In this document: positions 23,436-47,344 of the stretch, in pieces
Position numbering within the stretch: position 1 is the stretch's first letter
Layout of the letters: each line of letters opens with the position of its first letter
IMG/VR virus record: IMGVR_UViG_3300034111_001103
Coordinates: 1-64,000 of that record
Strand: one strand, 5' to 3'
DNA length: 64,000 nt
DNA from: a virus
Notes under the pieces: generated by a model
Database searches by the model: none
Seen by the model: the letters and a program-made list of their open reading frames with translations, nothing else
Told to the model about the DNA's origin: nothing
Position numbers and translations under genes: made by a program

Positions 23436-24455
23436 ATGGTAAAAGAACAAGTAATAACAGAAAATTATGCAATATACAATAGCGATTGTATGTTAGTATT
23501 ACCTACACTAGAAAATGAAAGTATTGACTTATCAATATATAGCCCCCCTTTTGCAAATCTTTATACATATTCAAGTTCAGAACGTGATATGAGTAATGTT
23601 TCAAGTAATGAGGAGTTTTTTACTCAATATGAATTTCTTGTAAAAGAGATGGCAAGAGTTACAAAAAATGGTAGAATTAACGCTATCCATGTTACTGATT
23701 TGTTTAAATATAACGGTGCTTTAAGCGATTTTCCGGCTGATATAATTAAACTACATGAAAAGCATGGTTTTACTTATATGAGCCGAATTACAATATGGAA
23801 AGAACCATTAAGAGTAAGGCTTAAAACTATGGTACAGTCTTTAATGCACAAATTTATAGTTGAAGATAGTACCAAGAATTACCCAGCAATGCCTGACTAT
23901 ATTTTATTATTTAAGAAAAAAGGAGATAATAAAGTACCCGTAACTCATCCGTTTGGATTTACACACTATGCAGGCACTACGCCAATTTTACCTGAAACTG
24001 TTGGTATTTATAACCGTGCAAATGACACAGATTTTAAAAATGGTGCTGATTTATGGGAATATATTTGTAAAAAATATGAAAACCATAAAGAAGCAGGAAC
24101 AAACAAAAAAAGTCATATTATTTGGCAAAGATACGCGTCAGCAGTATGGGATGATATAAGGGCGGAAAATTGCCTACCTTATAAAGATTCAAAAGAAGAC
24201 GATGACGAAAAACATATTACACCTACTCAATTAGATGTTTTAGATAGAATAGTAGATTTATATTCAAATCCTAATGAGGTTGTGTTAAGTCCTTTTATGG
24301 GATGCGGTAGTGATGTTTTTAGTCCTGTTTCTATGGGTCGTAAAGCTATTGGTATTGAGTTAAAAGATAGCTATTTTAAACAAGCTAAATTGAATTTAAA
24401 AGAAGCTGAAAAACGATTTAATACCTATAAATTAGAAAATTCTTTACTATTTTAA
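23436..24455 (+). CDS. DNA N4-C/N6-A methyltransferase (beta class)
   Basis: YSPPF catalytic motif N-terminal, VLSPFMGCGS SAM motif C-terminal. Confidence 0.9.
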   Translation: MVKEQVITENYAIYNSDCMLVLPTLENESIDLSIYSPPFANLYTYSSSERDMSNVSSNEEFFTQYEFLVKEMARVTKNGRINAIHVTDLFKYNGALSDFPADIIKLHEKHGFTYMSRITIWKEPLRVRLKTMVQSLMHKFIVEDSTKNYPAMPDYILLFKKKGDNKVPVTHPFGFTHYAGTTPILPETVGIYNRANDTDFKNGADLWEYICKKYENHKEAGTNKKSHIIWQRYASAVWDDIRAENCLPYKDSKEDDDEKHITPTQLDVLDRIVDLYSNPNEVVLSPFMGCGSDVFSPVSMGRKAIGIELKDSYFKQAKLNLKEAEKRFNTYKLENSLLF

Positions 24456-26461: not shown

Positions 26462-26466
26462 ACTAA

Positions 26467-26646
26467 ATGGAAAAAGAACTCAAAGAACTTTTAAAGCTAA
26501 AAGAAAATGTAGTAAGATGGAATATGTGCGCTGAACTCGATGAAAGGCTAGGAGTAGACCCAACTAAATCAAATGAAAGTGCATTGTTTTACGAGCAGGA
26601 ATTGAATAGTAAATTGAAAAAGATTATTGAAACTTATGGGAAATAA
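26467..26646 (+). CDS. Hypothetical 59 aa protein; stop codon is the TAA of the first attC-like TAAC
   Basis: MEKELKELL...IIETYGK; not in ORF track. Confidence 0.55.
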   Translation: MEKELKELLKLKENVVRWNMCAELDERLGVDPTKSNESALFYEQELNSKLKKIIETYGK

Positions 26647-26762
26647 CGCCTACGGCTTGGCGAAGTTGCCGTATTCCAAATGCCAAATTGAAAAACAAAT
26701 GATAAATTTTAGTACAAATGTTAAATAGTAGTACAGAACGGCAATTTAGCCAAACCGATGTT
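26645..26762 (+). repeat. attC-like site 1 (118 bp AAC to GTT)
   Basis: AAC-GCCTA-CGGCTTGGCGAAGTTGCCGT ... ACGGCAATTTAGCCAAACCG-AT-GTT; 17/20 complementary. Confidence 0.8.
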
Positions 26763-27440
26763 ACAGGAAGCCCTTTTAGAGTGCTTAATCTTTACGCTTG
26801 TTTAGGTGGTAACAGATATAAATGGACTGATTGCGAAGTTACAGCAGTTGAATTAGATAGTGAGCTGGCACGAATGTATCAAGAGAGATTTCCAAATGAT
26901 AAAGTGATAATAGCAGATGCACACCAATATCTACTTGAACATTATAAAGAATTCGATTTCATTTGGACTTCGCCACCTTGCCCAAGCCATAGCAGAGTAA
27001 GATTTACACAAAAAAATAAAGACTTTTATAATCCTATTTACCCGGAAATGACTTTGTATCAAGAAATCATTTTTTTAGAAAATCATTTTGAAGGTAAATA
27101 TGTAGTTGAAAATGTGATACCATACTATGAGCCTTTAATAACTGCACAACAAAGAGGAAGGCATTTATATTGGTGCAATTTTAAATTACCTAATAATATT
27201 GATAGAGAAGAATTAAAAGGATTAGTTGGTGGGAATACAAAATATGAAGTAAAAAAACTTTGTAAGCTACACGATATTGATATTGACTTTTTAAAATCGT
27301 ATAAAGGCGAACAAAGATTAGATAAAGTGATTAGAAATCTTGTTGATTATGAAGCTGGCTTAAACATTTTCAATACAGCAAGAGGAATTATTAATAGGTC
27401 AAATGTTAAAAGTCCTTCACTCTTTGATGGTGTCTTTTAG
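26718..27440 (+). CDS. DNA (cytosine-5) methyltransferase-like, cassette 1
   Basis: VLNLYACLGG, WTSPPCPSHS, VVENV; first 14 codons lie inside attC-like site 1. Confidence 0.85.
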   Translation: MLNSSTERQFSQTDVTGSPFRVLNLYACLGGNRYKWTDCEVTAVELDSELARMYQERFPNDKVIIADAHQYLLEHYKEFDFIWTSPPCPSHSRVRFTQKNKDFYNPIYPEMTLYQEIIFLENHFEGKYVVENVIPYYEPLITAQQRGRHLYWCNFKLPNNIDREELKGLVGGNTKYEVKKLCKLHDIDIDFLKSYKGEQRLDKVIRNLVDYEAGLNIFNTARGIINRSNVKSPSLFDGVF

Positions 27441-27450
27441 GGTTTCCTGT

Positions 27451-27574
27451 AACGTTTGAGAATATGAGAAGTGGCGGGAAAAAAGGTTTGTAGTACCGAG
27501 TGTAAATCTGAAACCTTGAAATACCCATTAAGCTCGACAGTAGCCACTCTTAGCCATTTCTTATATTCTTTGTT
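27451..27574 (+). repeat. attC-like site 2 (124 bp)
   Basis: AAC-GTTTG-AGAATATGAGAAGTGGC ... GCCATTTCTTATATTCT-TT-GTT; 15/17 complementary. Confidence 0.8.
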
Positions 27575-27597
27575 ATAAAATCGTTTTAATGTTTTAT

Positions 27598-27721
27598 AAC
27601 GTAAAATAATAAAAGCAGTAGCGATATGAAAGAACAAATTGAAAATATATTGATAAAGGTTGATGAAGGCACGATGCCTGTTCAACAAGCACTAAGCGAG
27701 CTATTGCTTTTATTTAGTGTT
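27598..27721 (+). repeat. attC-like site 3 (124 bp)
   Basis: AAC-GTAAA-ATAATAAAAGCAGTAGC ... GCTATTGCTTTTATTTA-GT-GTT; 14/17 complementary. Confidence 0.8.
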
Positions 27722-27877
27722 AGCGGTTCGTTGCCATCTATTGACCCATTAGATGACGAGAATAGCGAAATACATAAAATAGGTAGAGAAATAGCTGAAA
27801 TGTCCGATGAAGAGTTTGATAATAATTGTAAAGCAATAACAGATATGCTGTCAAGGTCGAAAGGCAATGACCGCTAA
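27626..27877 (+). CDS. Hypothetical protein: 31 codons from attC-like site 3 fused to cassette 3
   Basis: ATG in hairpin loop, GTT = Val32, stop is the TAA of the next TAAC. Confidence 0.7.
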   Translation: MKEQIENILIKVDEGTMPVQQALSELLLLFSVSGSLPSIDPLDDENSEIHKIGREIAEMSDEEFDNNCKAITDMLSRSKGNDR

Positions 27878-27997
27878 CGTATGGGTATTGGCGAAGGGCA
27901 AGAATAGTAGTACCGATGTTCAACCTTTGCACAATGCTAAATAGTAGTACAACTGCTCAATTTATTACTTCTGCTTGCCTTTTGCCAATACATTGTT
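27876..27997 (+). repeat. attC-like site 4 (122 bp)
   Basis: AAC-GTATG-GGTATTGGCGAAGGGCAAG ... CTTGCCTTTTGCCAATACA-TT-GTT; 16/19 complementary. Confidence 0.8.
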
Positions 27998-28071
27998 GTA
28001 CGCTGTTTTTCTTTGGTATTCAGTACTTTACAAAGTATCTAAAAATAAATAATAAAATTTTAATAAAATTA

Positions 28072-28102
28072 TTTGGAAATTAAAATAAATGTTGTATATT
28101 TG
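28072..28102 (+). promoter_or_regulatory. Promoter internal to cassette 4
   Basis: TTTG (28072) + 19 nt + TATATTTG (28095). Confidence 0.65.
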
Positions 28103-28145
28103 TACTTGATAAGCAATTAAGCATATCACTAAAAAAAATAAAAAA

Positions 28146-28331
28146 ATGACAGCAAATTCAGTAGTATCAAGAGAAACATTCAATAATGATTTGAATAATT
28201 GCTTAACTATTTTAAGCAACTTGACAGAAAAAGAAAATATAAAAAGTGAAACTTATACTTACTACAAATGTGAGTATATATCTCCTGCGTTATACAAAAA
28301 AACAATAATTGTAGCTGTTTATGAAAATTAA
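28146..28331 (+). CDS. Hypothetical protein, cassette 4 gene 1
   Basis: ORF after internal promoter with A-rich leader. Confidence 0.6.
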   Translation: MTANSVVSRETFNNDLNNCLTILSNLTEKENIKSETYTYYKCEYISPALYKKTIIVAVYEN

Positions 28332-28479
28332 GAAAAAAAGCCCTGCTGGTAGAAAGCCTGTTGAAGATAAAAAAGTGGTTGTAAACTTATTTATTCGTCA
28401 GTCAGAATTAGACAAACGAGGTGGCAAAGAAGAAGTCCAAAAGTCTTGTTATGAGTTTTTGGGTGTGTCCGCAAAATAG
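28321..28479 (+). CDS. Small DNA-binding (RHH-like) protein, cassette 4 gene 2
   Basis: MKIKKKSPAGRKPVEDKKVVVNLFIRQSELDK...; stop TAG inside the cassette's right inverted repeat; not in ORF track. Confidence 0.6.
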   Translation: MKIKKKSPAGRKPVEDKKVVVNLFIRQSELDKRGGKEEVQKSCYEFLGVSAK

Positions 28480-28532
28480 CGTACAACTAGTAGATTGTAG
28501 AAATTAATTGTACAATAAAACATTAATTATCA

Positions 28533-42937: not shown

Positions 42938-43762
42938 TTAAAGTTTATACCAATTAGTTCCGTCTGTTACAAATTCAAATGCTTTATCATTTCCTGTATA
43001 ATCATAATGAGTAGCACCATCAATATTGCTCCCAGATTGTGGATTAATTATAATATTATGATTTTTTGATTTTCTTTTTATAATAATTCTTGCAGTCATG
43101 CCATTAAAAAACATTTCAGATGCAATTGGCAAAGTTATAGTTTTGCTTGATGCAGAATTATCAACGATTGTAATCGATGCACAACTAGAAGCATTTAATG
43201 TAGTATTAGAGTTTATAACCTCAATAGATGTTGCATAGAATCCATTTACTTGTAATTTTGCTTCATTTGTAGTAGTTTCAAAGTTATCTATTCCAATAGC
43301 AGTTTTACCATTTTTAAGGATTGTAAATGCGTCTGATGGATTGCCACTTCCACCATTACCTACTACTAATAATCTATCTGTTGGCTCAAATGAAGTTGCG
43401 GATATTGGAGTATAGTCTGTATTTAAAGAACCTAATGATGTTTCTGAAAATGATTTTGCAGTTGTTTCAGTCCCCATTGCAGTAGAATAATCCCCACTAG
43501 CAATAGCACCTAGACCACTCATAGCTATACTATTTAATCCTGCAGCACTTTGAGGAGTAAAAGTTCCTGCATCATAGTTTTCAGAATATAGGTAATAAGA
43601 ACCTCCTCCTCCATTATTAACCCATTCTCCTTGTTGATTTAAAACAAGATCAGGATCTCCAGTAGTACTAGATATACCAAGACAAGCTCGAAGATAGCAA
43701 CAAAGTTTATTCCATCTACTTTCTAGTTTTTTTACTCTACTTTCTAATTCAAATAATCCCAT
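42938..43762 (-). CDS. Fibre protein with YadA/Hep-Hag-like head repeats; hybrid across the A/B junction
   Basis: ASGDYSTAMGTETTAKS, DRLLVVGNG..SDAFTILKNG; N-terminal ~54 aa differs from the 1..517 copy. Confidence 0.8.
   Translation of the reverse strand: MGLFELESRVKKLESRWNKLCCYLRACLGISSTTGDPDLVLNQQGEWVNNGGGGSYYLYSENYDAGTFTPQSAAGLNSIAMSGLGAIASGDYSTAMGTETTAKSFSETSLGSLNTDYTPISATSFEPTDRLLVVGNGGSGNPSDAFTILKNGKTAIGIDNFETTTNEAKLQVNGFYATSIEVINSNTTLNASSCASITIVDNSASSKTITLPIASEMFFNGMTARIIIKRKSKNHNIIINPQSGSNIDGATHYDYTGNDKAFEFVTDGTNWYKL
43351..43609 (+). repeat. Direct repeat copy 2 (partner 1-259); junction between phage A and phage B
   Basis: Same alignment, offset 43,350 bp. Confidence 0.97.
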
Positions 43763-47076: not shown

Positions 47077-47344
47077 TTAATTTATTTTTTATAACACTAA
47101 AAATATCTTCTATTTTGTAATCTTTAAAACAAGTATCACAATTTTTAATCTTTTCTAAGAGTTCTTTATATTTAGCTACTTTAAAAACTAAATCTTTATT
47201 TATAGTACCTCCTAAATCAAATCTTTGAGAAGAATGAAAAGCATTTATTTTTTTTGAAAGTTTTTTATCTATGGTTCTTTGTAATTTTTCTATATCTTCA
47301 CAAGAATAACCACAATCACAATTATTTGGTGTCATTACAATCAC
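47066..47344 (-). CDS. Putative tail hub B-like protein
   Basis: Small helical Cys protein after hub A-like gene; crAss-like synteny. Confidence 0.4.
   Translation of the reverse strand: MIVMTPNNCDCGYSCEDIEKLQRTIDKKLSKKINAFHSSQRFDLGGTINKDLVFKVAKYKELLEKIKNCDTCFKDYKIEDIFSVIKNKLNEL

Follow-up and report, generated by a model that had tools for sequence, protein, structure and literature searches.

A four-unit hairpin array in a phage record

The IMG/VR virus record IMGVR_UViG_3300034111_001103 comprises 168,934 bp, of which positions 1 to 64,000 form the window, the stretch of DNA that was analysed here. Immediately downstream of a conserved open reading frame (ORF; 26467-26646), the window carries an array of four hairpins that resemble the attC recombination sites of integrons, each followed by a segment of other DNA (Table 1). 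The left border of the array is a TAAC that carries the stop codon of the conserved ORF, and the right border reads ...AAC|TAGTAG. The first segment (S1) holds the gene for a cytosine-5 (C5) DNA methyltransferase of 240 amino acids (ORF 26718-27440; PF00145, 2.4e-8; phrog_363), with the methyltransferase domain beginning at residue 20. The second unit is empty, the third segment contains the C-terminal part of an 83-amino acid ORF (27626-27877) whose TAA stop codon lies inside the TAAC of the fourth hairpin, and the fourth contains two small ORFs of 61 (28146-28331) and 52 (28321-28479) amino acids. Apart from the C5 methyltransferase, no array cargo matched a family in Pfam/PHROG-type profile searches.

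Table 1. Positions of the hairpins (H), segments (S) and flank of the window array. R2 is the covariance model described in the text.
Feature	Coordinates	Strand	Details
Whole array	26644..28487	+	Four units, each a hairpin and the segment that follows it
H1, attC-like hairpin TAAC...GTTA	26644..26763	+	R2 86.7 bits, E 5e-19; also from scan and fold
S1, methyltransferase segment	26760..27453	+	Ends 26760-26774 / 27439-27453 complementary
H2, hairpin with family geometry	27450..27575	+	R2 45.3 bits, E 9.3e-9
S2, 29-bp palindromic "empty" segment	27572..27600	+	Ends 27572-27580 / 27592-27600 complementary, 9/9
H3, hairpin with 15-bp stem	27597..27722	+	R2 51.8 bits, E 2.3e-10
S3, segment with complementary ends	27719..27878	+	9 + 5 bases around a 1-nt bulge
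H4, best family match	27875..27998	+	R2 96.8 bits, E 1.6e-21
S4, segment with 15-bp complementary ends	27995..28487	+	Ends 27995-28009 / 28473-28487
Array-terminal flank TAGTAGATTGTAGAA	28488..28502	+	Partial match to T.GT..ATA.ACGCA; candidate attI-like primary site

All four hairpins start with TAACG, enclose a loop of 60-85 nt and finish with GTT(A/G). From AAC to GTT they span 118 nt (26645-26762), 124 nt (27451-27574), 124 nt (27598-27721) and 122 nt (27876-27997), with arms of 20, 18, 15 and 18 bp in H1 to H4. The 20-bp stem of H1 carries the family core TTGGCGAAG / TTTAGCCAA, to which TTGGCGAAG / TTTTGCCAA corresponds in the 18-bp stem of H4. An earlier note on this DNA had described an identical geometry with spacers of 5 and 2 nt; the common geometry holds approximately, but the spacers range from 4 to 7 nt after AAC (5, 4, 7 and 6 nt in H1 to H4, the G included) and from 1 to 4 nt before GTT (2, 1, 4 and 3 nt). 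Its placement of the four hairpins and their lengths were reproduced by both the structure scan and the independent covariance model described below. Two further observations of that note were also borne out, namely that the two ends of each segment are complementary to each other (93% over 15 nt in S1 and S4, with a G.T at position 11 in each; without a mismatch in S2; bulged in S3), and that stop codons fall in or at the right ends of segments (TAG 27438-27440, TAA 27875-27877 inside TAAC, TAG 28477-28479). Three window ORFs are able to start inside hairpins: the loop of H1 contains the ATG of the methyltransferase ORF (26718), the loop of H4 contains the ATG of a 55-amino acid ORF (27916), and the loop and right arm of H3 encode the first 31 codons of the 83-amino acid ORF (27626).

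A structure scan of the whole record returned these four hairpins as the top TAAC..stem..GTT matches and no further site of TAACG/GTTA geometry, the few matches of similar score being AT-rich and without that geometry. The covariance model R2, which was built from 60 sites of other contigs with the window and its close relatives excluded, found exactly the same four sites in the 64 kb, all on the plus strand (E 1.6e-21 to 9.3e-9), while minus-strand scores in the window reached at most 27.6 bits. One additional model match at 47213-47267 (E 0.03-0.04) was rejected as AT-rich and without TAAC/GTTA. No Rfam family matched the hairpins at gathering or at permissive thresholds, and a tRNA search of the array region found none. 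The single-sequence folding energies of the hairpins are modest relative to shuffles (z -1.4 to -2.1), and because they are only about two standard deviations better, a single sequence is weak evidence; the strength of the case lies in comparison across the family.

The hairpin family in phages and chromosomes

More than 118 IMG/VR contigs contained matches to a pattern based on the H1 and H4 left arms, and in about 60 of these contigs a matching right arm and a GTTA stood at the expected distance; a stricter pattern matched 86 stretches of GTDB genomes, nearly all from Bacteroidota. The earlier note had proposed that a covariance model would recover further sites of the same geometry, and such searches did yield hundreds more across Bacteroidota genomes and viral contigs. 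Over 388 sites, the modal plan of the family is TAAC, a spacer of 5-6 nt, a stem of 18-21 bp, a loop, a spacer of 1-3 nt and GTTA, with site lengths clustering near 85, 116, 123 and 187 nt. Flavobacterium metagenome-assembled genomes contain 40-66 sites each; among cultured phages, Flavobacterium phage vB_FspS_hemulen6-1 (MN812208) has 9-10 sites and four methyltransferases, and Polaribacter phage P12002L (NC_028924) has at least six family hairpins. Methyltransferases are the commonest genes near the sites, with the N6/N4 type in 47 loci (71 copies) and the C5 type in 16 loci.

In an alignment of 80 sites, TAAC and GTTA are nearly invariant, the stems align without gaps, both partners vary in 17 of the 19 stem pairs, and a single inner-stem G.U (G.T) pair is present in every site. 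Paired cells make up 95.8% of this alignment, against 67.9% after shuffling and 35-48% with the partner slid; because the sites were chosen by a pairing-based scanner, this percentage is inflated, whereas the diversity of pair types is not. The family thus has the imperfect inverted repeats, the AAC/GTT core and the retention of structure over sequence that characterize attC sites. In place of the extrahelical bases and symmetric central spacer of a classical attC, it has gapless stems and a spacer of 5-6 nt on one side against 1-3 nt on the other.

The same comparison was extended to the DNA between hairpins. In 120 of 290 inter-hairpin segments, the start of the segment is complementary to its own end at no fewer than 13 of 16 positions. 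Only 17 of ~5,000 random pairs score as high, as do 5 of 470 comparisons between the two flanks of a single hairpin. This agrees with the earlier proposal that the ends of each cassette match each other as they would in an excised circle. In the 149 clearest segments, the pairing extends over exactly 15 positions and then stops, and the pair at position 11 is G.T in 136 of them. Because the ends pair over exactly 15 positions, the complete site in an excised circle would consist of a 15-bp outer stem together with the inner hairpin. The wobbles of the inner and the outer stem lie on one strand, which is the plus strand in the window, and the complement would have A.C mismatches at these places. 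It is from these fixed G.T pairs (80/80 inner stems, 136/149 outer stems) that the strand asymmetry of the family comes, and the plus strand is for this reason taken as the stable fold.

The arrays also have a direction. The window array opens with a hairpin and closes with a complete segment. In viral arrays, the last hairpin has a complete segment behind it in 26 of 48 cases, close to the proportion of internal segments that satisfy the same completeness test (125/272), and the first hairpin has one before it in only 9 of 53. Because arrays open with a hairpin and close with a complete segment, and because the plus strand is the one stabilized by G.T pairs, we take the unit to be a hairpin plus the segment that follows it. 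The earlier note had assumed the reverse, with each hairpin belonging to the segment before it, recombination at the right-hand G|TT and 27571 joined to 26760 in the excised circle, and the polarity of the arrays points in the opposite direction. Crossover would instead occur at TAA|C on the plus strand (G|TT on the complement), and the excised circle of unit 1 is predicted to join 27452 to 26647, and that of unit 4 to join 28486 to 27878. Directly after the terminal ...AAC, 26 distinct arrays from unrelated contigs carry the motif T.GT..ATA.ACGCA, a candidate for an attI-like primary site.

In 104 of 107 viral segments the cargo ORF shares the plus strand of the hairpin, whereas 61 of 102 genome segments have it on the minus strand. 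When read on the minus strand, the chromosomal arrays show the canonical order of ORF and then site, with the folding strand as the "bottom" strand, and the phage cassettes, in which the site precedes the ORF, are the mirror image of these. In phages, 47 of 104 cargo ORFs are able to start inside the hairpin, and GenBank annotators also placed gene starts inside hairpins of phage hemulen6-1.

Evidence of turnover comes from four IMG/VR phages (L119, L120, L121 and L122) that share the neighbouring gene with the window at 95-97% protein identity. Homology with these relatives stops at the left TAAC (26645-26648), or one gene earlier in L120 and L121 (26461), and resumes at 28485-28488. Where the window has its four units, L122 has one extra hairpin-plus-ORF unit, behind which an H1-like hairpin heads a C5 methyltransferase cassette that is 74% identical to S1 in nucleotides; L120 and L121 have two small units with small ORFs, one of which is headed by an H3-like hairpin with a different segment behind it; and L119 has a segment with two ORFs, followed by a Dam methyltransferase cassette headed by a 48-nt mini-hairpin. 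The arrays of the window, L120 and L122 end with ...AAC and the same flank, with one base changed in L120. Homology to L119, L120/L121 and L122 breaks exactly at TAAC cores, with units gained, lost or replaced at these positions; the earlier note had expected cassettes to be gained, lost or reordered at G|TT. A 59-amino acid ORF left of the array (26462-26647) is missing from L120 and L121, a difference bounded by a short AAAT repeat; because of this difference, with the array starting one gene earlier, the left border of the variable region is not fixed. Across the family, similar hairpins share only their downstream flank in 63 cases, only their upstream flank in 18 and neither in 1027, a linkage to the downstream flank that is suggestive but weak because the hairpins fall into few sequence types.

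Finally, the arrays are associated with a recombinase in chromosomes. A cluster of Xer-like recombinases directly adjoins arrays in several loci, and the best integron-integrase-like gene abuts an array in all four Sphingobacteriia/Chitinophagia genomes (4/4). In a Mucilaginibacter chromosome (L210/L211), a run of 24 near-identical 187-nt hairpins covers 18.7 kb and stops at the recombinase gene. Sphingobacteriaceae chromosomes (L210/L211, L136, L141 and L191) contain such long arrays of near-identical 187-nt hairpins, in which every gene lies on the same strand and a 366-amino acid recombinase stands at the end; these arrays resemble the sedentary chromosomal integrons of Vibrio. A model match lies within 1.5 kb in 11-12 of 30 Bacteroidia recombinase loci sampled from 201 genomes, a tally that includes one unpublished genome (G148) from which no locus was used, and in 16 of 29 recombinase loci of the genus Flavobacterium, 14 of these 16 in one common arrangement.

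The array-linked enzyme scores below the cut-offs of the XerA, XerC/D and integron-integrase (TIGR02249) models, the last of which matches it in two pieces, and its closest solved structure is that of the integron integrase VchIntIA (2A3V, E 8.5e-31). Where VchIntIA (IntI4) has 66 residues (181-246), the array-linked recombinases have 23, or ~43 fewer, and for this reason they lack the IntI-specific domain. That domain is held to have enabled single-strand attC recombination (eLife 2020, PMC7790495).

Cargo and surroundings of the window array

Several features of the window array were noted in their own right. The methyltransferase ORF (26718-26735) and the 55-amino acid hydrophobic ORF (27916-27933) open with the identical six residues MLNSST, and the motif that codes for them, AATAGTAGTAC, recurs in many loops of the hairpin family; it may serve as a coding leader, as a promoter or as a repeat bound by a protein. 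The loop of H2 (27478-27545) holds a conserved 67-nt module that is 94% identical to positions 507-575 of a viral contig (L032), where it is the cargo of a GTTA...TAAC segment and not a hairpin loop. The module is also ~80% identical to L251:701-771, an unannotated stretch that separates tRNA-His from tRNA-Cys in KVP40-like Vibrio phages (Vibrio phage KVP40), and differs from that copy by compensatory changes in a 5-bp stem. Searches of the module found no tRNA and no Rfam match, and it may represent a small structured RNA or a site for protein binding. The palindromic segment S2 is homologous to the inner part of the mini-hairpin that heads the Dam methyltransferase cassette (L119:8333-8380). 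A compensatory pair distinguishes the two stems, GCTATAAAA/TTTTATAGC against GTTATAAAA/TTTTATAAC, and gives rise to new GTTA/TAAC cores; S2 may be a captured or decayed mini-site as opposed to true cargo.

The genes neighbouring the array encode a DnaA-HTH protein, an HNH endonuclease, an endolysin, a phosphoesterase and proteins of unknown function. A second DNA methyltransferase gene (23436-24455; N6/N4 type, 339 amino acids) lies outside the array, directly after a helicase gene, and belongs to the conserved replication module and not to a cassette. Positions 1-260 of the window recur at 43351-43610 (250/260 identical, with the first 121 bases identical), the close relatives of the left part of the window are contigs of 42-43.5 kb, and the terminal repeat of the record itself is 44 bp. 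On account of the internal repeat and the size of these relatives, two genomes appear to be joined in the record: positions 1-43350 have the look of a complete siphovirus-like genome, to which a crAss-like genome seems attached through either an assembly chimera or a cointegrate.

An integron-like reading and its alternatives

Sedentary chromosomal integrons carry uniform attC sites, as in the Vibrio cholerae repeats, and an "inverted-intI" layout exists. As in integrons, the arrays described here consist of single-gene cassettes between imperfect-palindrome sites that are kept in structure rather than in sequence, the AAC/GTT core lies at the inner end of the outer stem with the first bases of a cassette completing its own site, and one strand folds better than the other. 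In chromosomes, an Xer-related tyrosine recombinase ends the arrays and is co-oriented with the cassettes, and the sites within one chromosome are near-identical as in sedentary integrons (24 of 187 nt in Mucilaginibacter). Unlike integrons, the family has a recombinase without the IntI-specific domain, an outer stem of 15 bp with a fixed G.T in place of a 7-bp R box, and an asymmetric spacer of 5-6/1-3 nt with no bulged extrahelical bases; in phages, moreover, the gene follows its site and often starts inside it, and most arrays have no recombinase. The comparative signatures of the window array are integron-like in every one that could be tested, and classical membership fails on the integrase domain and on details of the sites. 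We regard the array region as probably an orphan array of four mobile cassettes, part of an integron-like system found widely among Bacteroidota and in their phages.

Under this explanation, each cassette would be an attC-like site followed by its cargo, with the plus strand folding as single-stranded DNA. After excision as a circle, the 15-base ends of the cargo would pair with each other, with the G.T at position 11, and would thereby extend the hairpin into a folded site with a 15-bp outer stem, an asymmetric internal loop of 5-6/1-3 nt, an inner stem of 18-21 bp with its invariant G.T and a variable loop. The enzyme would be an Xer/IntI-lineage tyrosine recombinase acting in trans, with a Flavobacterium host as its most likely source and a co-infecting phage as a less likely one. 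It would cleave at TAA|C, where the outer stem ends on its inner side, and units would be exchanged between arrays or with the attI-like site at the array end. Phage cargo would read away from the hairpin, the loop of which would often supply the start codon. As DNA methyltransferases are the main cargo, the array probably re-assorts anti-restriction genes within the phage lineage.

Several points weigh against this explanation. No tyrosine recombinase, serine recombinase or Y1 HUH transposase (PF01797), and no homologue of the phage-type Xer-like protein, was found in the 168,934-bp record, and a tyrosine recombinase of any kind is present in only 7 of 50 array-bearing viral records, so that the enzyme for the phage arrays must come from elsewhere. 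Of what the earlier note had called a site-specific cassette-shuffling system, the array of structure-defined attC-like sites with an AAC/GTT core stands, whereas the record, encoding no recombinase, holds an orphan array in place of a system. The enzyme beside the chromosomal arrays is not the IntI with an additional I2 helix domain that defines a classical integron. The sole family member that has been assayed, P12002L_attC1, was the only tested site without verified IntI1 recombinants (Front Microbiol 2023, PMC9892861). Shared-cargo breakpoints amount to eight informative pairs, with three left ends at the start of the hairpin and none at its end, which are too few to fix the crossover. Added to these is the inflated pairing percentage described above, and recombination itself, together with the cut position, the circular intermediates and the action of a host enzyme on phage DNA, is inferred. 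In addition, the plus strand is the phage mRNA strand, and G.U-containing RNA hairpins at start codons are a possible additional or alternative role.

The window layout, with four sites and no integrase in the record, fits the arrangement of a cluster of attC sites lacking integron integrases (CALIN), and a classical CALIN served by a canonical IntI would also account for the AAC/GTT core and the overall attC logic. Each unit of such a CALIN would consist of cargo and the hairpin behind it, and recombination would take place at the right-hand G|TT of the plus strand. One family member, in P12002L, was recognized as an attC by HattCI, and its region bears the name CALIN in the paper concerned (PMC9892861). 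We nevertheless consider this improbable, as arrays open with a hairpin and close with a complete segment both in the window, L119, L120 and L122 and in the viral tally (26/48 against 9/53), the array-adjacent recombinases are without the IntI-specific domain, and the sites have no bulged bases, a 15-bp outer stem and an asymmetric spacer. The IntI1 result for P12002L_attC1 argues against it as well, and according to IntegronFinder 2.0 there are almost no integrons in Bacteroidetes. It is similarly improbable that the hairpins are RNA elements of the phage early transcript, such as translation-control leaders, RNase III sites or terminators, with the cassette pattern a by-product of gene-by-gene module exchange. 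The stable G.U strand is indeed the sense strand in phages, and the ORF starts inside hairpins (47/104 viral cargo ORFs, including those at 26718, 27626 and 27916 in the window, and the GenBank starts in hemulen6-1) would be expected of such elements. Chromosomal genes, however, lie on the opposite strand (61/102) and yet the same strand keeps its G.T pairs, no Rfam family matches, and the 15-bp pairing of segment ends, the array-end motif and the linkage to a tyrosine recombinase are left unexplained.

The hairpins could instead be portable patches of homology through which general or phage homologous recombination shuffles genes without a site-specific enzyme. Hairpins are at least 80% alike while neither flank is in 1027 of 1111 pairs, most array-bearing phages have no site-specific recombinase, and RecT-like genes occur in some loci. 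We give this account little credence, because the shared cores measure only ~9 nt and the differences between stems are compensatory, breakpoints coincide with the 4-nt core and do not lie within the hairpin, and neither the cassette-specific 15-bp inverted ends with their fixed G.T nor the array polarity is predicted by it. Least credible is the insertion of non-autonomous transposable elements between genes, either miniature inverted-repeat transposable elements or elements of IS200/IS605 type. In its favour, the elements are small and repeated, form hairpins and end at a TTAC-like motif, but the record has no Y1 HUH transposase, the arms co-vary rather than keep one sequence, and the arrays are regular and lie beside a tyrosine recombinase. 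Nor are there target duplications: the flanks of one hairpin do not match (5/470), and it is the ends of the segments between hairpins that do.

Two further known systems bear on the integron-like explanation. XerCD recombines the folded single-stranded attP of phages, as in integration of the CTX-phi type, inserting at a single site into dif. This is a precedent for the action of Xer-type enzymes without the IntI helix on a strand-specific hairpin; it differs in that cassette arrays, matched cassette ends and a recombinase dedicated to an array are all absent. A Xer/dif site itself has a double-stranded core with two ~11-bp arms around 6-8 bp, whereas the conserved features of the family lie ~120 nt apart and pair solely upon folding of one strand. 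T4-type phages have mobile regulatory cassettes, made of promoters and stem-loops, that are placed at gene boundaries and move by homology. These too are short structured elements at gene boundaries in phage accessory regions and accompany modular gene shuffling, but they carry promoters and have no AAC/GTT core, cassette-specific inverted ends or linkage to a recombinase.

Phage CALINs have been reported, including that of Polaribacter phage P12002L with two methyltransferase cassettes (Front Microbiol 2023, PMC9892861). The site P12002L_attC1, which lies between two methyltransferase genes, has the family geometry of TAACG, spacer, wobble stem, AT and GTTA. That paper treated two sites as ordinary attC sites, in contrast with the at least six family hairpins found here in the same phage, and described neither the hairpin family, the 15-bp matched ends, the polarity nor the Xer-like recombinase. 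Literature searches for the hairpin family, the 15-bp ends, mirrored phage cassettes and the Xer-like enzyme returned only this paper and general integron papers. The array looks like a largely undescribed variant of the integron that is shared by Bacteroidota and their viruses.

More broadly, we see an even chance that Bacteroidota and their phages share a second kind of integron, in which an Xer-like recombinase that never gained the IntI helix acts on strand-specific folded hairpins with a G.T-marked outer stem of 15 bp, phages, many of them devoid of any integrase, carry mirror-image cassettes whose recombination site also provides the gene start, and anti-restriction methyltransferases are re-assorted by host enzymes during infection. 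The cultured phages hemulen6-1 and P12002L, together with genetically tractable Flavobacterium hosts, are ready experimental systems. If the arrays are active, the definition of the integron would be widened, a natural test of strand-specific hairpin recombination without the IntI domain would be available, and present integron finders would be missing a large pool of gene cassettes. Activity would also explain how Bacteroidota phages, some of them without a recombinase of their own, assemble and exchange arsenals of methyltransferases against restriction.

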